Shown here one piece after another: positions 1,094-56,718 of a stretch of 64,000 nucleotides of DNA. The translations under genes and the position numbers were made by a program. The notes below the pieces were generated by a model. It was not told the DNA's origin, made no database searches, and worked only from the letters and a program-made list of their open reading frames with translations. This DNA is from Candidatus Taenariivivens baikalensis (lineage in GTDB: Bacteria > Omnitrophota > Omnitrophia > Omnitrophales > Aquincolibacteriaceae): contig SICL01000004.1 in the NCBI GenBank assembly GCA_009691445.1, forward strand, positions 30,708-94,707. Reading direction: 5' to 3'. Each line of letters starts with the position of its first letter. Position 1 is the stretch's first letter.

Positions 1094-1200
1094 GTCATTC
1101 CCGCATTCTGTTGACAGGAATCCATTTTTTTGTCTGGATCCCAATCCGCCAGAGGCCGGATTCGTCCTCTGGCGAACAAAATCATCCGGGGATGAATGCT
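1094..1200. repeat. Family-A intergenic palindromic element. It is a GTCATTCCCGC...GGAATC hairpin plus CGCCAGAGG...CCTCTGGCG and CATCCGGGGATG hairpins.
   Basis: Inverted repeats are read directly from the sequence. The GTCATTCC terminus is shared with the elements at 6611, 53061, 57364 and 58541. Confidence 0.6.
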
Positions 1201-6610: not shown

Positions 6611-6649
6611 GTCATTCCCGAATACTTCTACTGGGAATCTATTCTTTTG
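6611..6649. repeat. Family-A short hairpin GTCATTCCCGA...TGGGAATC between rpsH and rpsZ.
   Basis: A short inverted repeat with the ATTCCC/GGGAAT stem is read directly from the sequence. It shares the GTCATTCC terminus with other family-A copies. Confidence 0.5.
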
Positions 6650-32191: not shown

Positions 32192-33013
32192 ATGCCTCAC
32201 GAAGAAGCCGCCGTAGAACACGTCAAGCATCAAGCGCACGAACTTCCCAATCTCATTACGCTTCTTCATGAAAATTTCGAGCACGCCCCCGTTGTTCAGT
32301 TTCTACATCAGTGGGAAAATATTCTTTTCTCTCTCGTCGCCATTTCTCTTCTCGGAATGCTTGCCTTGGGCGGCGCCAAAGCCAACCGTCTGATTCCCGA
32401 AGGCGTTCAAAATTTATTTGAAGCGATCGTGGAAGGAATCACGGGATTCGTCACTGGAATTTTGGGAGAGCAAGGAGAAAAACATGTCCCGTTTTTAGGG
32501 ACGCTCTTTCTTTATATTCTTTTCATGAACTGGATTGGCCTGGTCCCGCTCATGAAGTCCCCCACCTCGGCCTGGAGTACGACGATTGCCGTGGGTCTCA
32601 TTACCATGTTTTATGTTCAAATCACCGGCATCCGCGAACAAGGATTCTTCAATTATCTGAAACATGTCGCGGGCAATCCCTCCAATGGTTTTGGCATTGT
32701 CCTAATTCCTCTGATGCTGGTTTTAAATATTATTCTGGAATTTGGCGCCGTCCCATTTAGTTTGTCGCTTCGTCTTTTTGCCAATGTGTCCAGCGAAGAC
32801 CGTTTACTTTTTAACTTCGCAAGCTTGGATGTGGCGCGGCCGTTTTTACCTTTGTTCTTTCAATTATTTGCGAATGTTCTCGCGATTATTTTTAGTATGG
32901 TGCAAGCGTTTGTGTTTATGCTGCTTTCCACCGTTTACTTGTCGCTTGTGATGCCGCACGGAGATCACAAGCATGAGGATCACGGAGAAGCGGCCGGACA
33001 CCCGGCTCACTAG
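32192..33013 (+). CDS. atpB: ATP synthase Fo subunit a
   Basis: The conserved Arg-containing helix LSLRLFANV and other subunit-a TM segments are present. The C-terminal tail HGDHKHEDHGEAAGHPAH is unusual. Confidence 0.92.
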   Translation: MPHEEAAVEHVKHQAHELPNLITLLHENFEHAPVVQFLHQWENILFSLVAISLLGMLALGGAKANRLIPEGVQNLFEAIVEGITGFVTGILGEQGEKHVPFLGTLFLYILFMNWIGLVPLMKSPTSAWSTTIAVGLITMFYVQITGIREQGFFNYLKHVAGNPSNGFGIVLIPLMLVLNIILEFGAVPFSLSLRLFANVSSEDRLLFNFASLDVARPFLPLFFQLFANVLAIIFSMVQAFVFMLLSTVYLSLVMPHGDHKHEDHGEAAGHPAH

Positions 33014-33059: not shown

Positions 33060-33290
33060 ATGGATCCTAAAAGTTTTATCGCAATCGGTGCCCCGCTCGT
33101 TCTCGCATTAACTGCCATGGGATCGGCCGCGGCCTTGGGAAAATCTGTCGCAGCAGCGATGGATGCTACCGCTCGTCAACCGGAAGCCTCCACCAAGATT
33201 CTTGTGAACATGATGGCCGGCTGCGCTTTGATTGAAGCTCTCACGCTTTACGCCCTTGTGTTTGGTTTTTCGCTTTTGGGAAAACTGTAG
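33060..33290 (+). CDS. atpE: ATP synthase Fo subunit c
   Basis: The 76-aa hairpin proteolipid has GAPLVLALTAMGSAAALG and the conserved carboxylate in LIEALTLYALV. Confidence 0.95.
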   Translation: MDPKSFIAIGAPLVLALTAMGSAAALGKSVAAAMDATARQPEASTKILVNMMAGCALIEALTLYALVFGFSLLGKL

Positions 33291-33311: not shown

Positions 33312-33809
33312 ATGGATTTTTTTAAGCAGAACATCGTACCGGGAGAAGTCCTCATTCAGCTCGTTGCTTTTTTGGTTGTGTTCTTCACACTCAAAAAGCT
33401 CGCCTGGAAACCTGTGCTTACCGCCCTTGAAGACCGGCGCAAACGGATTCAAGACGAGTTCGCGCACCTTGAAAAAACCAGGCAGGAGCTTGAAGCCTTG
33501 AGGGCAGATTACGCTTCCAAACTTCAGAAGATTGAAGATGAGGCGCGCCTCAAGATTCAGCAGACGATTGAAGAAGGCCGCAGGATCGCCAAAGACATCC
33601 AGGACAGGGCCCGCTCCGAAGCTCAGGAAACTTTCGAGAAATCCAAAGAACATCTGAGCGTGGAAGTGGCCAAGGCACGCGTGACCCTGAAACAGGAAAT
33701 CGCGGCGCTGGCTCTTCAAGTGGCGGAAAAAGTCATCGGCGAAAAAATGACCGAGGAACTGCATCAGCACAAGGCGATTCAGATTATTGAGGAGCTTGAG
33801 AAACTATGA
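33312..33809 (+). CDS. atpF: ATP synthase Fo subunit b
   Basis: An N-terminal TM helix is followed by a long charged coiled coil (165 aa). Confidence 0.9.
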   Translation: MDFFKQNIVPGEVLIQLVAFLVVFFTLKKLAWKPVLTALEDRRKRIQDEFAHLEKTRQELEALRADYASKLQKIEDEARLKIQQTIEEGRRIAKDIQDRARSEAQETFEKSKEHLSVEVAKARVTLKQEIAALALQVAEKVIGEKMTEELHQHKAIQIIEELEKL

Positions 33810-34342
33810 TCGATCACCGGGTCAGCCGCAGATATGCGGGCGCTTTGATCGGCCTCGTAACTCAGGCAGATGATCTCGAGCGCGTGGATCAGGATTTCAC
33901 CAAAGTCCGGCAAATGATCGGTCAGTATCCGGAGATCACGCATCTGGCTTTGAATTCCACGATTTCCCGGGCAGAGAAAGAGGATTTTATCGAAAAAATC
34001 TTCGGTCCGGAAGTGAGCGGGATCATGATCCATTTTCTCAAGGTGTTGATTGAGAAACACCGCTTTGCCCAGTTGATCGGCATTCAGGAAGAGTTTCACC
34101 GTCTTTATGAAAAGAAAAAAGGCATTCAGCAAGTGGATGTCATTACCGCTGCTGCGCTGAATCCTAAGACCGAAGAGCGCTTGATCCAGGCGCTTCAGAA
34201 AAAATTCCGGACAGAAATCCGGCTTCAAACGCATGTGAACCCCGCGATTCTGGGAGGAATGATCCTTCGTTTCGGCGGGAATGAAATTGATGCAAGCTTT
34301 AAGGACCGACTTTTAAAAATGCGGCGGCTTTTGCTGGCTTAA
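33806..34342 (+). CDS. atpH: ATP synthase F1 subunit delta (OSCP)
   Basis: The 178-aa ORF overlaps the atpF stop. It has delta/OSCP family features and the canonical position before atpA. Confidence 0.88.
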   Translation: MIDHRVSRRYAGALIGLVTQADDLERVDQDFTKVRQMIGQYPEITHLALNSTISRAEKEDFIEKIFGPEVSGIMIHFLKVLIEKHRFAQLIGIQEEFHRLYEKKKGIQQVDVITAAALNPKTEERLIQALQKKFRTEIRLQTHVNPAILGGMILRFGGNEIDASFKDRLLKMRRLLLA

Positions 34343-34355
34343 TATTATGAATAAT

Positions 34356-34425
34356 GTCATTGCGAGCGAAGCGAAGCAATTTCAGCGCTAAGATTGCCGC
34401 GCTCGCTCCGCTCCCTCGCAATGAC
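34356..34425. repeat. Family-A 70-bp nested palindromic element (GTCATTGCGAG ... CTCGCAATGAC) inside the atp operon between atpH and atpA
   Basis: 11-bp perfect terminal inverted repeats are read directly from the sequence. A near-identical copy in opposite orientation lies at 54761-54830. Confidence 0.85.
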
Positions 34426-34438
34426 AAATTAGGAGAAC

Positions 34439-35947
34439 ATGATGCTAAAACCCGAAGAAGTTACACAAGCAATTCAGGATGAAATCAAAAAATACAGCTC
34501 CAAACTTGAAATGGAGTCCGTGGGTTATGTGCTTCAAGTCGGCGATGGCATTGCGCGCGTCTACGGTCTGGATCAGGTCATGGCCAATGAAATGGTCACC
34601 TTTCCCGATCAAACCATTGGGCTGACCCTGAACCTCGAGCCCGACAATATCGGAATCGTGATCCTGGGACCGGACCGTAATATCAAAGAAGGCGACCAAG
34701 TCAAACGCACGGGCCAGATCGCCCAAGTACCCGTCGGAATCGAACTGCTTGGCCGCATTATTAATCCCTTAGGATTGCCGTTGGATGGTAAGGGGCCAAT
34801 CACGTCAACTAAGAACCGCCCGCTTGAAACCGTTCCTCCTTCCGTGATTCGCCGCCAGCCCGTTAAAGAACCTCTACAAACAGGAATCAAGGCCATCGAT
34901 GCCATGATCCCAATTGGACGCGGGCAACGTGAACTCATTATCGGCGACCGGCAAACCGGAAAAACCGCCATCTTGATTGACACGATCATCAATCAAAAAA
35001 ATTCTGGTGTTTTTTGTATTTATGTCGCCATCGGCCAGAAACTTTCCAGTGTCGTTGCCCTGGCACAAACACTTGAAAAGCACGGCGCTATGGCATACAC
35101 CACGATCGTCTGCGCTTCATCGGATGACGCGGCTCCGCTTCAATACTTGGCTCCGTACGCCGGATGCGCCATTGGGGAAGAGTTTATGTATACAGGTAAA
35201 CACGCGCTCGTGGTCTACGACGATCTCTCCAAACACGCCGTGGCTTACCGCGAACTCTCACTTCTCTTGCAGCGTCCTCCCGGCCGTGAAGCCTATCCGG
35301 GTGATGTGTTTTATCTTCACTCCCGTCTTCTTGAGCGCGCGGCAAAAATGCGGGAAGATTTGGGTGGCGGATCTCTCACCGCGCTTCCCGTCATTGAAAC
35401 TCAGCTTGGCGACGTGTCGGCTTATATCCCCACCAATGTAATTTCAATTACCGATGGTCAGATTTATTTGGAAAGTGATTTATTCTATTCGGGGGTGCGT
35501 CCTGCCATTAACGTGGGTCTTTCGGTATCCCGTGTCGGCGGAAACGCTCAGACTAAAGCCATGAAGCAAGTCGCGGGGACGCTTCGTCTCGCGCTCGCCC
35601 AGTACCGTGAACTGGCGGCCTTCGCGCAACTCTCCACGGATCTTGATCAGACCACCAAGGATCAGCTTATCCGCGGAGAGCGCATGGTGGAAATCTTGAA
35701 ACAGGGTGTTTTTCAACCGCTTCCGTTTGAAAAACAGGTGATGATCATTTTTGCCGCCAATATCGGCGCACTTGATGATATCCCGCTCGCCAAGCTCAAG
35801 GACTTTGAGACGGGCCTTTACCCGTTTATCACAAAAAACTACCCCGACGTAGAACACAAAATCCAAAAAGAAAAGGCCCTGAGCGATGCCCTTAAGGCCA
35901 CCCTCACGGAAGCCATTAAGAAATACAAAGGACAACTGACCCAATAA
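34439..35947 (+). CDS. atpA: ATP synthase F1 subunit alpha
   Basis: The ORF has the Walker A GDRQTGKT and a 502-aa alpha-family sequence. Confidence 0.98.
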
Positions 35948-36070
35948 CCAAGATCCAAGAAACAATAACCAAAGAATGACCAAATTCCAAATTTTCAATT
36001 TTTTATTTGAAATTTTAATGATTGATTATTGTTTGGTGTTTGTATCTTGGTGATTGGTTATTAGAACACT
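35948..36070. repeat. Family-B long imperfect hairpin (CCAAG/CCAAAT-rich arm then TTGG/ATTTGG-rich arm) between atpA and atpG
   Basis: The inverted-repeat arms are read directly from the sequence. Related copies lie at 38469-38560 and 62594-62685. Confidence 0.7.
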
Positions 36071-36988
36071 ATGTCAGGCAAATTAAGAGAACTCAAAAAC
36101 CGGATCCGCAGCGTTGAGAATACAAAAAAGATCACGCGTGCGATGGAAATGGTAGCGGCCTCCAAGCTGCGCCGCTTTCAGACCCTGATGTCCCAAGCCC
36201 GTCCCTACACACTGGGATTGGAAAGCCTGCTGAAGCGCTTGAACCAGAATCTGCCTTCCAAGAGTCATCCTTTTTTTGAATCTCGGGAAGAAAAAAAAAT
36301 CGGTGTGGTTTTGATGACTTCGGATTCTGGACTCTGCGGTTCGTACAATCTTGATCTGCTGGAACATACGCGGGATTTTCTCCGTGAAAATAAATCAGAA
36401 AAAATATGGATTGGAGTGGGCAAGGCCGGCATTGCTGAACTGCGACGTCTTGGTTGCAAGATTCATAAGGAGCTGATTGAAATTCGGCCAGCGCGGTTCG
36501 ATGAGATTTTGAACGACCTCAAATCGATGCTCGAATCTCTTTTCCTGAGCAGGCAGGTGGACGCGGTTTATGTGATCTACAGTCACTCGTTGACGTCTTC
36601 AAGCTTTGCGGATGTTACCGAGAAACTGTTGCCGCTGGCCCAACCCGCCTCTACGCCCGTCATCGCGAACGAAGAGAAGCAATCTAACGCCGTTATTGCT
36701 CCTCGCAATGACAAAGAGCAAGACGTGGATTATATCTTTGAACCTTCGCCGGCATTTATTTTTGATAAGCTAATTCCGCTTTATTTTGAGTCTAAAGTAA
36801 GACAAGTGTTTCTCGAAGCCATCGTCTCCGAGCAGATTGCCCGTATGACGGCCATGCACGCCGCCACGCAAAACGCCAAAGAGATGATCAGCTCGCTTGT
36901 CTTGGAACGCAACAAAGCGCGCCAGGCTTCGATCACTAAAGAAATTATTGAGATTGTGTCGGGCTCTCAAGCCCTAAAAATAAAGTGA
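36071..36988 (+). CDS. atpG: ATP synthase F1 subunit gamma
   Basis: The gamma-family N- and C-terminal coiled-coil helices are present (MSGKLRELKNRIRSVENTKKITRAMEMVAASKLRR...). Confidence 0.95.
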   Translation: MSGKLRELKNRIRSVENTKKITRAMEMVAASKLRRFQTLMSQARPYTLGLESLLKRLNQNLPSKSHPFFESREEKKIGVVLMTSDSGLCGSYNLDLLEHTRDFLRENKSEKIWIGVGKAGIAELRRLGCKIHKELIEIRPARFDEILNDLKSMLESLFLSRQVDAVYVIYSHSLTSSSFADVTEKLLPLAQPASTPVIANEEKQSNAVIAPRNDKEQDVDYIFEPSPAFIFDKLIPLYFESKVRQVFLEAIVSEQIARMTAMHAATQNAKEMISSLVLERNKARQASITKEIIEIVSGSQALKIK

Positions 36989-37010
36989 GGCGTCTTTCGT
37001 GAAGCGTTAA

Positions 37011-38468
<1,458 letters not shown>

Positions 38469-50332: not shown

Positions 50333-51730
50333 ATGAAAAACTTAATGCGCTTAAAACCAACCGCACCAGGTTTTCTTCTTTTAGTCCTTTCTCTTTTCGG
50401 GCCATCTTCCACCGCCTTTGCCGTTGGTTCGGGCGGTTTTGAAAATGCGACCTTCAGTTCAATTGCTATCTCTCAGAGTAATGCCGTCACCGCTCAAGGC
50501 GAAGAACCGGCGGCTATTTCCTATAACCCGGCAGGAATTGCTAATCTAAAAGGCCTGCAAGTGGAATCCAATATGGGTTTTATCAGCGTAATCACCCATA
50601 TCAGTAAGCAGAGCCAGGACGGAAAAACTCAGAGCTCCGGGACACTCGTGGAAGTTCCCACGGGCTATCTGACTTTCAATCCCGGAAAAGTCTTTAATGA
50701 CCGGCTGGTGCTAGGAATCGGGTCCGATTCGCCCTTTGGCCTCTCCAACAAGTGGGATTCAGCCAATCAAGCAGTCCGGTACACGGGCTACAAGAACTGG
50801 CTCAAAATGTATACCCTGAAACCCACGGTTGCCTTCAAATTCACGGATTGGTTGTCGGTTGGTGCCGGGGCCATGAATTACCGCGTTTTTAATTTTGGAT
50901 CAGTCCAAGCCTACCCTAACAATGCTATTGTTCCGGGATCTCCGGACGGCCAGCTTCGACTCAATATGAGCGGCTCTCATTGGGGTTGGCATTTCGGAGC
51001 GCGTGTGAAACCAGCTCCAAAGCATCAGTTTGGATTTTATTTCCGGAGTCCTGTTAAAATTCACATCCGAGGAAAAGTAAAGGTGGAACGCTCTTCCTTT
51101 GCGCCGGGAGGACGTTTTGAAAGCGGTGCTTATTCCAATCTTGATCTTCCGATGAATATGACCTGGGGCTATGCTTTCATGCCTAATCCCAAGAACACTA
51201 TTGAAGCAGATTTTGGCTACACACGCTGGTCTCAGCATAATCGTCTGGATGTGATTTCTACCGACAGCATCAGCACCTTCGATGACATGATTTTAGCCGC
51301 CATCAGTCTCAATGCCCATGATTATGACGACACCTTCTCGATTCATCTCGGAGGAAATCACAAGGTCAATGACCGCCTGACCTTGCGCGCGGGAACATTA
51401 TTTTATACGGCCGCGGTGCCCAAAAACCATCTTATCCCTGCGGTGCCGGACAGTAACAGGCTGGCTTTTTCTGCAGGTCTCAGCTACCAGATCAATCAAA
51501 TGATGGCCCTGGATGTTTGCTATATGAACATGATTGGCCTGCGCAGAGGCGTGAATAATGATATCGGCGAATCCCTCGGCGGATCTGGGGATGGAAAATA
51601 TACTTCTGATTATAATATTTTCCTGATCTCAATGAGGTTGATGTGGGAAGATCTGTTTGACAAGATGCTGCCTGGAAGTAAACCCTCAGAACCTGCTCAA
51701 AAGTTGGAAGTTTCCCCGGAAATAAAATAA
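50333..51730 (+). CDS. outer-membrane long-chain fatty acid/hydrophobic compound transporter, FadL/OmpP1/TodX family
   Basis: A signal peptide and the family-typical ISYNPAG motif near the N-terminus of a roughly 440-aa beta-barrel are present. Confidence 0.75.
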   Translation: MKNLMRLKPTAPGFLLLVLSLFGPSSTAFAVGSGGFENATFSSIAISQSNAVTAQGEEPAAISYNPAGIANLKGLQVESNMGFISVITHISKQSQDGKTQSSGTLVEVPTGYLTFNPGKVFNDRLVLGIGSDSPFGLSNKWDSANQAVRYTGYKNWLKMYTLKPTVAFKFTDWLSVGAGAMNYRVFNFGSVQAYPNNAIVPGSPDGQLRLNMSGSHWGWHFGARVKPAPKHQFGFYFRSPVKIHIRGKVKVERSSFAPGGRFESGAYSNLDLPMNMTWGYAFMPNPKNTIEADFGYTRWSQHNRLDVISTDSISTFDDMILAAISLNAHDYDDTFSIHLGGNHKVNDRLTLRAGTLFYTAAVPKNHLIPAVPDSNRLAFSAGLSYQINQMMALDVCYMNMIGLRRGVNNDIGESLGGSGDGKYTSDYNIFLISMRLMWEDLFDKMLPGSKPSEPAQKLEVSPEIK

Positions 51731-52236
51731 CGAAGCGTCGACTGCAGTTTTAGAATCGCCTCATCCTTCAAGCGGCTGATCGGATTTCCGTAATAACGTT
51801 TGATCGTCTTTTCAATATCTTCATCCGTGGCAAGAACGATTTCAATATCCCGAATGCCGGGCACGCACTCGAGATCTTTAAGAGAAGCGAGATTCATGGG
51901 ATCAGGGATAGCCACAAGCATCATCCCTTCCTGGATCGTAATCGGGATTAAACCATGTTCGACAGCGAACTGTTTTGAAACCGCTTGCAGGGCCTTGGCC
52001 TGAATCTTGATTTGAGATAAATCCACAAACTGTTTTCCAAACTGAATTGCCAGGGCCTGATATAAAATATTTTTCGAAATGACTCCGTTATCAATCAGTA
52101 TCTTTCCAAGAGGGCGCTTCTTCTCATCGTATTTCTGGAAATTTAACGCGTCTTCAAGATCCTGCCCCTGAACCCACCCCTGATGAAGCAAAATTTCTCC
52201 GATTCGTATGGGCTTCCGTTGTGTGGATATGATCAT
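51697..52236 (-). CDS. stand-alone MshEN-like domain protein (tandem c-di-GMP-binding motifs plus T2SSE_N fold), with no ATPase domain
   Basis: Two 24-aa copies of the RLGxxLLxxG(L/V/I)(L/V/I)xxxxLxxxLxxQ motif are present (RIGEILLHQGWVQGQDLEDALNFQ and PLGKILIDNGVISKNILYQALAIQ). They are followed by a GspE/PilB N-terminal-domain-like segment (LIPITIQEGMMLVAIPDPMN...IEIVLATDEDIEKTIKRYYG). Confidence 0.7.
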   Translation of the reverse strand: MIISTQRKPIRIGEILLHQGWVQGQDLEDALNFQKYDEKKRPLGKILIDNGVISKNILYQALAIQFGKQFVDLSQIKIQAKALQAVSKQFAVEHGLIPITIQEGMMLVAIPDPMNLASLKDLECVPGIRDIEIVLATDEDIEKTIKRYYGNPISRLKDEAILKLQSTLRYFISGETSNF

Positions 52237-52348: not shown

Positions 52349-52532
52349 GTCATTGCGAGCTACAGCGAAGCAATCTCGGGTTGTGCGCTTGAGATTGCCG
52401 CGTCGTCCTGCGGGACTCCTCGCAATGACTAAAATCTTTTCGTTGTCATTGCGAGCTGCAGCGAAGCAATCTTGCTGGTTGTGCCCAAGGATTATTGCCG
52501 CGTCTCCGCCCAAGCGCGGGACTCGCAATGAC
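52349..52532. repeat. Two tandem family-A elements of 81 and 88 bp, each bounded by GTCATTGCGAG...CTCGCAATGAC, separated by a 15-bp linker
   Basis: Read directly from the sequence. Both units contain an inner GCAATC...GATTGC palindrome. The internal sequence differs between units. Confidence 0.85.
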
Positions 52533-52584: not shown

Positions 52585-53055
52585 TTATCCTCGAATGAAG
52601 TCTTGCCTGGAAGAATCCCATATAAAAAGCGCTGAGTCGAAAGCCTTCCCCGCCTGAATGGAAAAAATTAAATAGGCGGCATTGGGATAAACAGGGTTTC
52701 CCTCCCATAGAGCCTGGCGGCGATCTTCTTCGGAAAAGGCTGCTGGGGCATCAATATGAGAATGATAAATGAGACAAATAATCAGGCTGTCGCGACGAAG
52801 TCTTTGATGAACTAATAGAAGTTCGCGAGGATCGATTAAATAAGCAGCGCGGGAAGTGCGAGGATATGTCTGAGGATCCTTGCGATGAAGTTCATCCTGC
52901 ACATTTCTACAGGGAATGATTTCTAGCAGTGTATCGGGATTCTTATTCGTCGCCAGACCTAAGCCACAGCATTCCTGGGGATATTCTTGTTCGGCGTGCT
53001 GCTGAATGCGAAAGAGTAAATTCTGCGGAATGGTGAGGGGCATATGATTCCACAC
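52585..53055 (-). CDS. JAMM/MPN+ (Mov34) family metalloprotease
   Basis: The JAMM motif is intact: the ECCG glutamate, then HSHIDAPAAFSEED (H-x-H-x7-S-x2-D). The ORF is 156 aa. Confidence 0.75.
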   Translation of the reverse strand: MWNHMPLTIPQNLLFRIQQHAEQEYPQECCGLGLATNKNPDTLLEIIPCRNVQDELHRKDPQTYPRTSRAAYLIDPRELLLVHQRLRRDSLIICLIYHSHIDAPAAFSEEDRRQALWEGNPVYPNAAYLIFSIQAGKAFDSALFIWDSSRQDFIRG

Positions 53056-53060
53056 ATTTT

Positions 53061-53136
53061 GTCATCCCCGAAATTTCTTGTCGAGGAGAGGATCCAAAAG
53101 GCTTCTGGATTCCCGCCTAAAGCATGCGGGAATGAC
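53061..53136. repeat. Family-A element GTCATCCCCG...GCGGGAATGAC
   Basis: Terminal inverted repeats lie between the JAMM gene start and the upstream gene stop. Confidence 0.6.
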
Positions 53137-53146
53137 AAACACCTAA

Positions 53147-54739
53147 TTAATCCTGGTGGATAATTCCGGCAATTCGGCCAGACCTGATTTGAACGCGTAC
53201 ATGGGCAGACTGTGCTTTGGATCCCGAACGCACAGTATGAATCACCGCATCAAACACCTCTGCGCTGGATCCTAAATCAATCGTCGGCGAGTGAACATCC
53301 GCTGAACTGAGGTTTTTACCTTGGGCATTAACGAGATCCACATGATACGTCGTTTGCTCTGTGGTCCAAAACTTGTGATCTATCGCCAGATCTTTAAAGC
53401 TAAGCAATTGGTTTTGTAATGAAAAATCTTCCAGGGGAGAGGATGTTTCAAACCCGTATTTCCCAATCAGATCCCGGCGCTCAATAAGCACCTTGGCAAC
53501 GGTTTCGCTGTCCTCGGGCTTGGAAAGTTTTCCGGTTTTCACAATCGCACGAATATTCTCATCCGAAAAGGACATGATAATCTTGGTTGCCCAAAGCGCA
53601 TCCGCACGGGTTAAGTCCTTAAACGCGTAATGCGGCAGCTGGGTTTTGTATTTCGCGGGATCAAAATAACGGTTGTCAAAATAACCGACTGCCGGAGAAA
53701 CACTCATCAGATTTTCTCCCGTATCTTTCCAACGTTTTTGCCAGGGCTTTTTCCAAAATCCAAAAGAAAAAATGGCTTTCCCGGTATCACCATAATCCAC
53801 AAAATACTCGTGAGTGGCCATGGGAGGCTTGGCGCCGTTCGAAGAACTGCCTAGTGCATCCTGAAAATCCATCAGGTAATGTTTCAAAACTGGCTTTCCA
53901 TTGTCACTCACCAGAAGATCCTGCGTATTACCTTCCCGCAGGTCATCCTCACCTAACCAAGAACCAAAGACACGCAAAGCCCGAAGCGCCCGTAAGCAAT
54001 CATGATTAATTTTATCTTGAGGATCAGCGCTGCGGCGGCCTTGAAATCGAAAAACCCCTTTGTCTTCTCCTGCCGGTGTTTTTCTCGCGGAAGCCCGGTA
54101 ACGGCCTTCTTCGTCCTGGGGAACAAAAGTAATATATTGTTCAAAACGTTCCTGCGTTAGTTTTTTCTGAAAGCCGGTGTCGTCATAGACAGTCGCAGAG
54201 GGGGCAATGGAGACCTGCTTCAAGGTGAAGGTCGCAATTGTATATTGAGGAACTGAATAGCCAATCGCGTGAAAAAAACGGCTGGCGATGGAATCGGCGG
54301 ATGTCTGAAGCTCCAACGAGTCTTCGGAATCGAATTTCAAAAAATAAGCTCCTCCCTTGGAATCCTTGATAAAAAATCCAGGATGAAGACCGTTGAATTT
54401 GCCTTGAGTGATCGTAAGTCCGTTGCTGAAATCAGGGCCTTCATTTTCCGCAGGACCTTTGGCCAGCTCCTCAGCACTGAGGGGCTTGCGGGCGTGACGA
54501 TTCACAAAGAACGCTGAATCCGGAACTTCATCATAGGCATTAACATCCAGCGAACGGAGTTTTTTCTTGGCAACAAAGCGGTAAAGCCGGTCCAAATGAA
54601 GAAAATTGGTGCCTTCGTAGTAGACGTTCTGATTAAAAAGATCGGCGAAAAAACTGGTCTCTTGTGTTTTGATCTCTTGCGCAAAGGCAGGCGCCGACAG
54701 CGGAAGCGTTGCTGCAATCATGACAATGGCTATTGTCAT
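53147..54739 (-). CDS. secreted hypothetical protein (530 aa with signal peptide)
   Basis: The ATG at 54739 gives MTIAIVMIAATLPLSAPAFAQE, a classical signal peptide. I do not recognise the family. The track's longer N-terminus reads through repeat 54761-54830. Confidence 0.6.
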   Translation of the reverse strand: MTIAIVMIAATLPLSAPAFAQEIKTQETSFFADLFNQNVYYEGTNFLHLDRLYRFVAKKKLRSLDVNAYDEVPDSAFFVNRHARKPLSAEELAKGPAENEGPDFSNGLTITQGKFNGLHPGFFIKDSKGGAYFLKFDSEDSLELQTSADSIASRFFHAIGYSVPQYTIATFTLKQVSIAPSATVYDDTGFQKKLTQERFEQYITFVPQDEEGRYRASARKTPAGEDKGVFRFQGRRSADPQDKINHDCLRALRALRVFGSWLGEDDLREGNTQDLLVSDNGKPVLKHYLMDFQDALGSSSNGAKPPMATHEYFVDYGDTGKAIFSFGFWKKPWQKRWKDTGENLMSVSPAVGYFDNRYFDPAKYKTQLPHYAFKDLTRADALWATKIIMSFSDENIRAIVKTGKLSKPEDSETVAKVLIERRDLIGKYGFETSSPLEDFSLQNQLLSFKDLAIDHKFWTTEQTTYHVDLVNAQGKNLSSADVHSPTIDLGSSAEVFDAVIHTVRSGSKAQSAHVRVQIRSGRIAGIIHQD

Positions 54740-54760: not shown

Positions 54761-54830
54761 GTCATTGCGAGGGAGCGGAGCGACCGCGGCAATCTCAGCG
54801 CTGAGATTGCTTCGCTTCGCTCGCAATGAC
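54761..54830. repeat. Family-A 70-bp element, a near-identical reverse-orientation copy of 34356-34425
   Basis: GTCATTGCGAGGGAGCGGAGCGAcCGCGGCAATCTcAGCGCTGAgATTGCTTCGCTTCGCTCGCAATGAC aligns to the reverse complement of the atpH-atpA copy with about 4 mismatches. Confidence 0.85.
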
Positions 54831-54833
54831 GAC

Positions 54834-56162
54834 TTAAAAGGGTGTGCTGGTTTTAACATAATAATTGGTTCCTTCATCTCCATGGGCCATTTCCAACGAC
54901 AGCAACACAACGTTTGCCAAACTCGTGCGAATCCCAACTCCATACGATTCACGCAAATTCTTTGATTTCAACTTGTCAAAATTTTTGAAGACCTGCCCTG
55001 AATCCAGAAATACCACGGCGTCCGTCTTCCAATCTCTGTATTCCCAAAGATTGTACCGATACTCTACATTGAAAACGACCATGCTGCGGTCTGTAAACCG
55101 GTTGTAGCGATAGGCCCGAAGGGTTTCGCTCATCTGGTCCGACATCCCGTAACCTCCAAGCCGCGCCATTTGATGAAAGGGCACAGAGTGTCCGTTTGTT
55201 TCAGAGTTATGTTCGCCGTAAGCACGAATCCCAAGTACGCGGCGCGGAGTGCCCAGCTTAAAATAATGACTGAGTTCCATTTCGTATTTGAAAAACTCGG
55301 CATTGGAACTGTAAAGACCCTGGTTATAGCTGAAGCCAAACTTTTGAAGACCGCCGGTTGTGGAATTTCCAGCCTGATCACGGGTATCACGCTTCGCCTC
55401 AGTTTTATAAACTAAAAGTTCATCCCCGTGAAGCCCGGGAATGCCGGCGCTGCCATTGAAAATACCACTGTTATAACGGCCCATCGATCCATCACGACCA
55501 TCCGCGATGTGTACATTGCGGTAGCCAAATTTAAAATCCAGGGAATGCGCCACGTCCGGCTTGTACCCAAGAAGATATTGAAGATTGGTTTCTTCCCGTT
55601 TGTACACATAACCATCTCCCCGGCTGGAATGGGGACCGATGCCATAGAAATGTTCCTGGGGATGGGTTTCATATTGAAAATACCCCTGAGTCCGGAATCC
55701 GGTTCCGCCGATGCGCTCTACGCCAAGACGCGATCCAACGTTAAAATTATAATGGGACGCAAAATGGATCCAGCTATCCGCCACCAAATCCGGAAAACGT
55801 TCCTTCTGATGAAGGGCCCTGACAAAATCAACTTCAGCGCCTATATCCAGACGCGCCAAGCTAATCAAATTGAGTTTTGGTGTCAGACCTTTTTTGCCTA
55901 GCGTGTCATACACCCACTGGATCTTTTCCATCACGTGGTGTTTTTCCATATAGACCAAGCTCTTATCCACGGGGTAACGCAGGATTTCAAAGGGATATTC
56001 CGGAAAATGCAGCAGACTTCGTTCAAACAGAGTGGCCTGTTTAGGTTCGCTCTGAAGCGGAGCATATTTATCGTAAGAACTATCCTGGGCAAACAACGGG
56101 GGCGAAGCAAGAAGCAACACGGCTGTAAAACGGATGATGGATAAGAATGATTTTTGTTTCAT
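54834..56162 (-). CDS. Omp85 (BamA/TamA/TpsB superfamily) outer-membrane beta-barrel protein, short form
   Basis: The ATG at 56162 gives the signal peptide MKQKSFLSIIRFTAVLLLASPPLFAQD. The C-terminal barrel has alternating aromatic/hydrophobic strands, a Gly-rich motif, and a terminal ...YVKTSTPF ending in Phe, as in the bacterial surface antigen D15 domain. Confidence 0.65.
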   Translation of the reverse strand: MKQKSFLSIIRFTAVLLLASPPLFAQDSSYDKYAPLQSEPKQATLFERSLLHFPEYPFEILRYPVDKSLVYMEKHHVMEKIQWVYDTLGKKGLTPKLNLISLARLDIGAEVDFVRALHQKERFPDLVADSWIHFASHYNFNVGSRLGVERIGGTGFRTQGYFQYETHPQEHFYGIGPHSSRGDGYVYKREETNLQYLLGYKPDVAHSLDFKFGYRNVHIADGRDGSMGRYNSGIFNGSAGIPGLHGDELLVYKTEAKRDTRDQAGNSTTGGLQKFGFSYNQGLYSSNAEFFKYEMELSHYFKLGTPRRVLGIRAYGEHNSETNGHSVPFHQMARLGGYGMSDQMSETLRAYRYNRFTDRSMVVFNVEYRYNLWEYRDWKTDAVVFLDSGQVFKNFDKLKSKNLRESYGVGIRTSLANVVLLSLEMAHGDEGTNYYVKTSTPF

Positions 56163-56292
56163 AGGGTAATAAAGTGTTTCTCGAAAAATATTTATCGGCT
56201 CCCGAGGATTTTCCTTAAGATTTATTTTTGATTCTTCAACTGCCGGACGCAGAAACAACTGGTGGGGCCAGGGCCAGCCGGACTTGGCCTCT

Positions 56293-56718
56293 TTAGTCGT
56301 TATCCGCCGGAAGGGTAAAGGCTTGAGGAATATGCCTGATTTCCGGAGCTCCCCGCCCGACAGATGACAGGCCGGCGTCTAGTGACCCGCTCACGGCAAT
56401 CACATCAAAGCCCGCGGGTTGGGAAGCAAAGCTCGGATGCGTTTTTAAATACCACTGCGCCAGCCGAATCAGCTTCTTTTGCTTGGCCGCGTGAACCGAT
56501 TCTTCGGGCCGTCCGAAGTGATCATTCGACCGTGTCTTAATTTCAACGAAGATAATCCGTCCATCCTTTTGAACAATCAAATCAATTTCACCGATTGTGC
56601 ACCGATAGTTTTTCTCCAAGATCTTGTAGCCTTGCTTCTTTAGATAACTGCAGGCTGCCGCCTCACCGCGGTCTCCGAGCGTATAACGAAAAGGTTTAGA
56701 GCTGGGTTTAAGCTTCAC
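56293..56718 (-). CDS. yraN: YraN-family (UPF0102) predicted endonuclease
   Basis: The ORF has GEAAACSYLKKQGYKILEKNYRCTIGEIDLIV...IIFVEIKTR, a PD-(D/E)xK-like motif. It shows the conserved synteny downstream of rnhB. Confidence 0.8.
   Translation of the reverse strand: MKLKPSSKPFRYTLGDRGEAAACSYLKKQGYKILEKNYRCTIGEIDLIVQKDGRIIFVEIKTRSNDHFGRPEESVHAAKQKKLIRLAQWYLKTHPSFASQPAGFDVIAVSGSLDAGLSSVGRGAPEIRHIPQAFTLPADND

Follow-up and report, generated by a model that had tools for sequence, protein, structure and literature searches.

A CGTC/TGTC-tagged palindromic doublet in the atpH-atpA spacer of a Candidatus Omnitrophica genome, a probable REP-type repeat with relatives in many phyla

The atpH-atpA junction

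The DNA considered here is a 64-kb window (the whole stretch analysed) of a Candidatus Omnitrophica metagenome-assembled genome (MAG). It carries an ATP synthase (atp) operon, and between the atpH and atpA genes of this operon lies a 70-nt palindromic element, copy A, with a near-identical partner, copy B, elsewhere in the window. The element is quite probably a non-autonomous repeat of the repetitive extragenic palindrome (REP) type: an inverted doublet of CGTC- or TGTC-tagged hairpin arms, organized much like the REP doublets known as REPINs, and dispersed in this genome and in many phyla. The genes and features needed for the comparisons below are:

32192-33013: atpB (Pfam)
33060-33290: atpE (Pfam)
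33312-33809: atpF (Pfam)
33806..34342, plus strand: atpH (delta/OSCP; Pfam PF00213, E = 1.3e-44), stop codon TAA at 34340-34342
34356..34425, plus strand: copy A, a heterodimeric inverted doublet of 70 nt between atpH and atpA, supported by its sequence, its alignment to copy B, RNA and DNA folds, and the arm census
34356-34380: short arm of copy A, GTC-ATTGC-GAGCGAAGCGAA-GCAAT
about 34381-34391: spacer between the arms of copy A
about 34392-34425: long arm of copy A, read on the minus strand as TGTC-ATTGC-GAGGGAGCGGAGCGAGCGCG-GCAAT-CTT
34431..34441, plus strand: AGGAG Shine-Dalgarno (SD) sequence (34431-34435) and ATG (34439-34441) of atpA
34439-35947: atpA (Pfam)
36071..36988, plus strand: atpG (gamma subunit, 305 aa; Pfam PF00231, E = 1.2e-83, 299 residues over a 285-position model), host of copy C (see below)
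37050-38468: atpD (Pfam)
54761..54830, minus strand: copy B, 67/70 identical to copy A, with a perfect central palindrome AATCTCAGCGCTGAGATT

Copy A starts 13 nt past the atpH stop codon and ends 5 nt ahead of the atpA SD sequence, and no open reading frame (ORF) is disrupted. A first-pass annotation of this stretch, made from the sequence alone, had proposed that it was inserted between the two cistrons, and the same junction in related genomes bears this out. The comparison used the loci of gamma-subunit homologs (close relatives of AtpH turned up at just two loci in a metagenome scan). The atpH-atpA spacers are:

L223: 13 nt
L224: 18 nt
L005: 19 nt
L222: 19 nt
L221: 73 nt, an unrelated hairpin
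L003: 116 nt, unrelated
the window: 96 nt

A counterpart of copy A is missing from this junction in all six relatives. With copy A removed, the window's own spacer is 26 nt long (TATTATGAATAAT joined to AAATTAGGAGAAC) and retains its SD sequence. Because four of the six relatives have an element-free spacer of 13-19 nt, copy A is, on this comparison, a lineage-specific insertion. It is not an assembly artefact, since an identical copy is present in the assemblies of two other samples of the same population (L001 and L002). The 73-nt spacer of L221, which is another Omnitrophota MAG, is filled by a different perfect hairpin (TTTAGGGGACAGGCA...TGCCGTCCCCTAAA, at 2820-2892).

Copies A and B

Copies A and B are reverse complements that can be aligned without gaps over all 70 nt, with three differences (about four had been estimated at first); they also come out of a repeat finder as an inverted pair of 70 nt with 96% complementarity. 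The similarity is not limited to the terminal 11 bp, and it ends within 1-2 nt of the termini, beyond which the flanks are unrelated. The central palindrome is intact in copy B, while two transitions break that of copy A. The 25-nt left arm, with up to three mismatches allowed, occurs three times in the window against an expectation from shuffled sequences of 0.00; the 11-mer terminus, with up to one mismatch, occurs 10 times against 1.23 expected.

The opposite orientations initially ascribed to the two copies hold for the genomic strands, but relative to local transcription the orientation is the same, because the genes on either side of copy B, an Omp85-family ORF (54834-56258) and a 530-aa ORF starting at 54739, are both on the minus strand. 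Copy B is 3 nt past the stop of the former and 21 nt ahead of the ATG of the latter, whose N-terminus (MTIAIVMIAATLPLSAPAFAQE) is signal-peptide-like. Directly upstream of the Omp85-family gene, also on the minus strand, is an ORF for a UPF0102/YraN-like predicted nuclease (56293-56718; NERD and NucS_C similarity), probably a housekeeping gene.

Further members in the window

The two copies are not a pair. The window contains at least three further members, making a family of at least five with termini GTCATTGCGAG...CTCGCAATGAC, as well as related arms that keep the tag but have a different base stem (here called sister families):

36659..36712, plus strand: copy C, a 54-nt (18-codon) degenerate doublet, in frame in atpG, read as VIANEEKQSNAVIAPRND
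52349..52429, plus strand: copy D, an 81-nt heterodimer, its long arm with a distal helix GTCCC/GGGAC
52445..52532, plus strand: copy E, an 88-nt heterodimer 15 nt downstream of copy D
53061..53136, no strand assigned: sister-family doublet with base stem ATTCC(CGC)/(GCG)GGAAT and a CCA tail, between the stop of the 530-aa ORF (53147) and the start of a JAB-domain ORF (53055)
1094..1122, plus strand: sister-family single arm, TGTC-ATTCC...GGAAT-CCA
6611..6639, plus strand: sister-family single arm, TGTC-ATTCC...GGAAT-CTA

All five window copies are inverted doublets. Copies A and B are alike from end to end; C, D, and E share with them a near-invariant short arm and the termini, and differ in the spacer and long arm. 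The tags at the two ends are TGTC/TGTC in A, CGTC/CGTC in B, CGTC/TGTC in C, CGTC/AGTC in D, and TGTC/AGTC in E. The sequences flanking the five copies have no direct repeat in common and show no target-site duplication. A census of tagged arms found 11 in the window, against 1.4 expected; two of the 11 are chance hits, one of them inside a tRNA.

Copies D and E stand in tandem between the minus-strand JAB-domain ORF (52585-53055) and an MshEN-domain ORF (51697-52236). The minus-strand genes here form a string with a tagged REP doublet at every junction: the Omp85-family gene, copy B, the 530-aa ORF, the sister doublet, the JAB-domain ORF, copies E and D, and the MshEN-domain ORF. This suggests a very high density of repeats at unidirectional junctions in this genome. 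The two sister-family single arms are in a ribosomal-protein cluster.

Anatomy of the family

Public collections of species-representative genomes and of viral contigs were scanned with the pattern GTCATTGCGAG-N30-60-CTCGCAATGAC, which matched at least 120 loci in the former and 92 viral contigs. The common layout is GTC-ATTGC-x-GCAAT-loop-ATTGC-y-GCAAT-GAC, found in 184 of 217 unique copies from other genomes and in just 2 of 4340 shuffled interiors. Read tag first, each arm consists of a 5-bp base stem (ATTGC/GCAAT), a conserved internal loop (GAG ... CG(A/T)(A/G)), and a distal part. In some arms this last part is a 5-nt CGNAG loop, in the others a helix whose sequence varies freely; the commonest form of x, with the loop, is GAGCGNAGCGAA. 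Asymmetric heterodimers make up 136 of the 184 parsed copies. In elements with two short arms, the central N of GAGCGNAGCGAA is identical between the arms in 20 of 27 cases.

The distal helices are varied in sequence and strict in pairing: 27 arms have 19 different helix sequences, and all 128 base pairs are Watson-Crick, with no G-T wobble. The asymmetry between G-T and A-C mismatches, a guide to which strand folds, hence has no mismatches to compare. Outside the stem, the base 5′ of GTC is C at 69% and T at 25% of the ends of the 217 unique copies, compared to 28 and 21% in the flanks as background. Of 398 arms, 234 (59%) have CCA as the tail behind GCAAT, and 66 have CTC; the window copies have CTC, CTT, or TTC tails, and none has CCA. 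Sister families occur at the same loci, keeping tag and tail with other self-complementary base stems (ATTCC, ATCCT, ATCCCG, ATCGCC, and ATGCCC), with 140 such arms against 20 in shuffles.

Distribution

Going by the names on the genome records, the matches listed represent about 11 phylum-level groups, counting Omnitrophota (the window and L223). They include Alpha-, Beta-, and Gammaproteobacteria, Desulfobacterota, Chloroflexota, Bacteroidota, Planctomycetota, Cyanobacteria, and Nitrospirota, and also lineages of the candidate phyla radiation (CPR; Berkelbacteria, Saccharibacteria, and Woesebacteria), Schekmanbacteria, and Moduliflexus. Two of the viral contigs (L179, 3052-3440, and L216, 4415-4800) have three family elements in tandem with a period of about 156 nt.

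The element has no counterpart in Rfam: in the window, tRNAs alone reach the gathering threshold, a search of the element at E values up to 10 gave chance hairpin matches only, and 15 loci from other phyla had no match at their elements. Literature searches with the translated signature peptides returned only irrelevant results, and those with the DNA strings of the element only unrelated primers.

Assignment to the CGTC repeats

The closest published relatives are the CGTC REPs of Di Nocera, De Gregorio & Rocco (2013, BMC Genomics 14:522; PMC3733652), a large known class that the first-pass annotation overlooked, as it did the in-frame copy in atpG. These repeats have an unpaired CGTC tag (often TGTC, with CCTC also accepted), stems starting with AT, and a 3-nt tail approximating CCA, and are mostly dimers. 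They are found between unidirectional or convergent ORFs, near the stop or 3′ end of the upstream one; in-frame intragenic copies of 20-30 aa are frequent, and have been equated with Rickettsia RPE-4 and RPE-6 and the Neisseria dRS3 repeats (PMC3733652). They were reported from five phyla and have no transposase associated with them; GTAG REPs and REPINs, in contrast, come with REP-associated tyrosine transposases (RAYTs; PMC3733652, PMC3116915, PMC6006769).

The element described here shares nearly all of this: the unpaired (C/T)GTC tag, A-T at stem positions 1-2, a 3-nt C-rich tail, inverted dimers or heterodimers as the usual form, foldable into one long hairpin, and positions between unidirectional ORFs near the upstream stop. 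In-frame intragenic copies, a spread over several phyla, and the lack of a linked transposase are further points in common. The published tag, AT-start stem, and CCA-tail pattern is also that of the sister doublet at 53061..53136. One catalogued family, CGTC-3 (whose peptide VIAGLDPAIH corresponds to GTC-ATTGCCGGG...CCCGGCAAT-CCA), even has the same ATTGC/GCAAT base.

The differences are structural and taxonomic. CGTC-1 to CGTC-4 have a continuous stem of 8-9 bp and a loop of 4-5 nt; the arms here have a 5-bp stem, the GAG/CG(A/T)(A/G) internal loop, and then either a 5-nt loop or an extra helix. CCA is the most common tail in the published families, in contrast to the CTC, CTT, and TTC tails of the window copies. 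Given its stem and loop geometry the element falls outside the four catalogued families, and its signature peptides are missing from the published table of intragenic copies (PMC3733652). The 2013 authors state that further CGTC classes exist, and that bulged ones would have escaped their search; they also describe clustered arrangements, such as the tandem arrays noted above, as rare (PMC3733652). Omnitrophota, Chloroflexota, Nitrospirota, the CPR lineages, and viral contigs are outside the published five phyla. The element is therefore classed as an additional family within the CGTC superfamily, with an arm structure of its own and with hosts in phyla from which the superfamily had not been listed; what is new is the structural variant and its host range, the superfamily itself being already known.

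Among other small repeats, the nearest in architecture are REPINs (Bertels & Rainey, 2011, PMC3116915; PMC3337134), which also consist of two inverted REP hairpins with a short spacer, form a larger hairpin, are non-autonomous, and make up within-genome sequence populations with near-identical members. REPIN arms, however, have a 5′ GTAG or GTGG tag and flank a single-copy RAYT gene, whereas here the tag is CGTC or TGTC and no RAYT or IS200-like gene was found in the window or next to any of about 210 copies. The REPIN-RAYT system is also described as mostly vertically inherited and lineage-specific, in contrast to the identical termini found here across phyla and in viral contigs.

Intercistronic E. 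coli REPs and bacterial interspersed mosaic elements (BIMEs), as at malE-malF, resemble copy A in being hairpins without a U-tract near the upstream stop, with the potential to act as exonuclease barriers or translation modulators. They belong to the GTAG-3 family, however, and their function has been demonstrated by experiment, while the position of copy A is not conserved among relatives.

[quoted passage not shown] MITEs derive from insertion sequences (IS), have 15-30-bp terminal inverted repeats matching a transposase, and are flanked by duplications of the target site. The window copies show no such duplication, no IS emerged as their parent, and the conserved unit is the tagged hairpin arm and not a terminal inverted repeat. 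Integron attC sites, dif/Xer sites, and CRISPR repeats were ruled out on sequence grounds.

In-frame copies in the gamma subunit

Copy C occupies exactly 18 codons of the 305-aa gamma subunit, which matches the Candidatus Omnitrophica protein P0001 at 100%. In an alignment to 21 homologs it appears as an insert of about 17 aa, missing from the nearest relative (P0002; 288 aa, 81% identity by BLASTP and 85% in the multi-homolog alignment). Other Omnitrophota gamma subunits have independent repeat-derived peptides in the same loop: ...EIASLTSFARNDD... in P0008, ...EIASLRSAELAMT...PPRNDVIASAAKQS... in P0046, and ...ILRSAQDD... in P0006. The DNA of these inserts is built from the same family arms. 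Measured from LP(L/F) to Y(I/L)(F/Y)EP, the loop is 21-25 aa long in four relatives without a palindromic insert. It reaches 39 aa in the window, 45 aa in L005, and 58 aa in L223, all with family arms, and 31 aa in L221, with a different palindrome. The genes with enlarged loops in the relatives are:

L005, 6001-6936: atpG
L223, 5001-6020: atpG
L221, 4512-5405: atpG

As judged from these alignments, a single surface loop of gamma has been colonised in frame repeatedly by palindromic repeats in different Omnitrophota. The palindrome in the L221 loop (GGGACGGTT...AACCGTCCC) is related to the hairpin in that genome's atpH-atpA spacer. Another AtpG homolog, P0024, has a 34-aa N-terminal extension (MVGVDPCVDPLLEIRADTCLAGRQAEVRPYTRTF) that resembles a further widespread repeat in translation; the start codon has probably been called too far upstream, the real one being that of MSGQL.

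Structural comparisons place the insert where an insertion might be expected to be tolerated. Aligned to solved gamma subunits, it coincides with gaps at the loop equivalent to E. coli PASDDDDLKHKSW, and the alignment to chloroplast gamma breaks at the same loop, which is also where the regulatory insert of chloroplast and cyanobacterial gamma is located. In an AlphaFold model of the window's gamma (mean pLDDT 83), residues 195-220, comprising the insert, are the sole segment below 50 and form a coil between strand 179-187 and the C-terminal helix. By this model, copy C is an in-frame insertion at a structurally tolerated site of a functional gene.

There is a parallel in the Rickettsia palindromic elements (RPEs; reviewed in PMC10969869), which likewise occur as in-frame palindromes in essential housekeeping genes, in surface loops, with the fold kept, and whose insertions also recur in unrelated lineages. 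RPE-1, however, is about 150 bp long and specific to Rickettsia, while the insert here is 54 bp and comes from the MAG of a free-living or host-associated member of the Omnitrophota; repeated colonisation of the gamma loop in different Omnitrophota is another difference from the classic RPE-1.

Palindromes at other atp junctions

Family members occur sporadically at different atp junctions in different Omnitrophota, which fits the mobility or gene conversion that had been suggested for copies A and B. L223 has one at its atpA-atpG junction, where L005 has a member of a sister family (GTC-ATCCT-GAGCGGAGCGAA-GGAT-C...). The length of this junction ranges from 17 to 145 nt among relatives. In the window it is a 123-nt AT-rich imperfect palindrome (35948-36070; aataaccaagatccaag...cttggtgattggttatt) with no sequence relation to the CGTC family. 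Further on, an inverted repeat at 36982-37040 (AAAGTGAGGCGTCTTTCGTGAAGCGTT / AACGCTTCACGTCCAACGTTTCACGTT) overlaps the atpG stop and fills the spacer up to the atpD start; it may represent a third repeat family.

Mobility and origin

The empty junctions of relatives, the near-identity of copies A and B, and the dispersal of the family are best read as the marks of a REP-type hairpin repeat that is probably selfish DNA. Copy A would have entered an ancestral atpH-atpA spacer some 26 nt long, either mobilised in trans or copied from a member elsewhere in the genome. Of the two, copy B seems nearer the source, because its central palindrome is intact while that of copy A is broken by two transitions; copy A would then be a decaying derivative. 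The tag, base stem, internal loop, and co-varying distal helix are together probably the mark of a hairpin recognised as single-stranded nucleic acid by a trans-acting protein. RAYT/IS200-type enzymes recognise GTAG REPs in this form, as single-stranded nucleic acid.

Searches for such a protein were made both in the window and around other copies. No transposase was found in the 64 kb. When the ORFs lying up to 1.2 kb from about 210 copies were clustered, no transposase recurred; most clusters were phage or gene transfer agent structural genes from similar alphaproteobacterial viral contigs, a sampling artefact. RAYT and IS200 queries of approximate sequence had no match over the same distance around the same copies. 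A small GIY-YIG gene (COG2827), considered as a possible partner and also searched for with an approximate query, was rejected, as it adjoins only one of the roughly 210 copies: the sole such neighbour within 1.2 kb is at 1719-2018 in L119 (Candidatus Woesebacteria), 59% identical to the approximate consensus used as the query. No protein is known to mobilise CGTC REPs in general.

Comparison of orthologous sites is less simple to interpret. Pooled over sites, the identity of the element (0.82) is about that of its flanks (0.83), a figure confounded by the fixed termini and by flips. Such a flip is seen in viral contigs, where the heterodimer at one orthologous site in L150 (1107-1187), L157 (1836-1917), and L208 (start 1365) is inverted compared to L194 (1821-1902) and L165 (4818-4899). 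Identity of the element is 0.83 when flipped and 0.71 in the same orientation, with collinear flanks at about 0.85. This implies that the element either turned round in place, by way of its inverted arms, or was inserted anew at that site.

Several points weigh against an insertion by a mobile, selfish repeat. The view of the genome is limited to one 64-kb window. No mobilising enzyme was identified by the searches described, so mobility is deduced from distribution. The positions of copies A and B, at unidirectional junctions and 3-13 nt past the upstream stops, fit a role at the RNA level equally well. Finally, in some same-orientation orthologous pairs the element is at least as well conserved as its flanks (0.97 compared to 0.77 in L192 and L212), so it may be under some constraint.

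Gene conversion is another possible source of the near-identity of copies A and B, with two old resident copies homogenised and no recent transposition. Short dispersed repeats can be homogenised by recombination, and members of the family can stay in place at orthologous sites in genomes that have diverged; inversion in place, if that is what the flips represent, would show that recombination or template switching acts on these palindromes. One argument against this explanation is that the similarity stops exactly at the element termini. Another is that the other three window members, with the same arms, have not been homogenised, and the empty atpH-atpA site in relatives makes copy A, at least, a gain in this lineage. 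Homogenisation thus seems an unlikely explanation, and insertion of a REP-type repeat is preferred.

A more ambitious version can be imagined, in which the repeats would be an unrecognised, still-active, pan-bacterial fifth family of CGTC REPs, their arms read by an unlinked and highly conserved enzyme, either phage-borne or a universal host protein, and in which the copies in the gamma loop have been co-opted to modulate rotation or inhibition of the ATP synthase. An unlinked conserved enzyme would, if real, account for the same termini turning up in about 11 phyla, CPR lineages, and viral contigs. As a whole this scenario is speculative and quite improbable.

Folding and possible function

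The termini had been proposed to close a stem-loop of about 70 nt in the mRNA, and in the mRNA sense copy A is indeed predicted to fold as a single hairpin, with a free energy of -32.0 kcal/mol (z = -4.5) when computed as RNA and of -19 kcal/mol when computed as DNA. As DNA, its single arms reach just -2.8 and -3.5 kcal/mol, a stability that shuffled sequences also attain, and the whole-element hairpin dominates. The mRNA strand is the weaker-folding one (-32 and -36 compared to -43 kcal/mol), and in a fold of the wider context the atpA SD sequence is unpaired.

Given a strong, GC-containing intercistronic hairpin, the first possibility to consider is an intrinsic terminator or attenuator, splitting the atp operon into Fo/delta and F1 transcripts. 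A terminator scan made no call at copy A, however, and the sequence just downstream, AAATTAGGAGAAC, offers no T-run. The atpA SD sequence and start codon come directly after, and no promoter-like site was found between copy A and atpA. Termination is therefore very improbable.

A hairpin of this stability without a U-tract could have other effects once transcribed. It would form a passive barrier to 3′-to-5′ exonucleases, and possibly an obstacle to terminating ribosomes. Both have precedents in E. coli: 3′ hairpins protect upstream operon segments from 3′ exonucleases, for example at malE-malF (PMC5927463), and REPs less than 16 nt from a stop codon lower expression of the upstream gene by stalling terminating ribosomes (Liang et al., 2015, as cited in PMC12306157). 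Copy A, 13 nt past the atpH stop, and copy B, 3 nt past the stop upstream of it, are both within this distance, and CGTC REPs in general favour sites close to the upstream 3′ end (PMC3733652). By analogy, an effect of copy A on translation or on message stability, such as the differential stability of upstream Fo/delta and downstream F1 message suggested in the first-pass annotation, is plausible.

It is a further step to suppose that copy A has been domesticated as a post-transcriptional element, whether by stabilising the atpB-E-F-H part of the message or by stalling ribosomes and so lowering delta relative to alpha. The two versions have opposite consequences for the enzyme, in which delta and alpha are present in a ratio of 1:3. 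Stalling would shift expression in the stoichiometrically sensible direction, while upstream protection would favour delta over alpha, contrary to that ratio. The junction has no such element in any of the six relatives, with other palindromes scattered haphazardly over the atp junctions, and copy A has decayed relative to copy B. A family member has been flipped at an orthologous site, and the distal helices lack G-T wobbles, unlike most helices selected as RNA. The -32 kcal/mol fold, though stable, is that of the weaker strand. Absence in relatives, the weaker strand on the mRNA, decay, and the orthologous flip all make a selected regulatory role less likely, and domestication is best regarded as doubtful, with a small but real chance of being correct. 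Copy A is best read as a tolerated insertion, with any regulatory effect a by-product.

A function for the host at the DNA level is also conceivable, either as a site for a nucleoid or topology protein or as a cruciform relieving transcription-induced supercoiling at the ends of highly expressed genes. Gyrase, IHF, and Pol I act at E. coli REP/BIME elements; we know of no protein that binds the element described here. Fully Watson-Crick distal helices, in which both strands pair equally, and the tolerance of either orientation would suit such a role, as would the location of copies in highly expressed operons (atp, and the ribosomal-protein cluster with the sister-family arms at 1094 and 6611). 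It is also among the roles discussed for REPs by Di Nocera and colleagues (PMC3733652). Presence and absence vary among relatives, however, and copies are tolerated inside coding sequence. In addition, family size varies widely by species, which for the 2013 authors excludes a general chromosomal function (PMC3733652). A DNA-level function accordingly seems improbable, and a non-autonomous REP-type repeat, tolerated where it has inserted, remains the preferred description of copy A.

Significance

For annotation, repeats of this kind explain several oddities of this window and phylum: long intercistronic spacers, spurious small ORFs, and length variation in otherwise conserved proteins such as the ATP synthase gamma subunit. 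They also explain 'hypothetical' peptides such as ...VIASEAKQS, ...LLRFARND, or ...CFASLAMT.

If the hairpin of copy A does modulate the expression of delta and alpha, it would be a case of a selfish repeat rewiring the stoichiometry of an operon. The more interesting by-products of the analysis are the in-frame copy in gamma and the spread of the family over phyla. The repeated in-frame insertions into a single loop of gamma, an essential subunit of a rotary motor, amount to a natural experiment on insertion tolerance. CGTC REPs are a large repeat class lacking a known mobilising enzyme, and the family described here, whose termini are the same in viral contigs and in about 11 phyla and which has copies 96% identical within a single genome, offers a good handle on that enzyme, one that would be useful in hunting for it by phylogenetic profiling.

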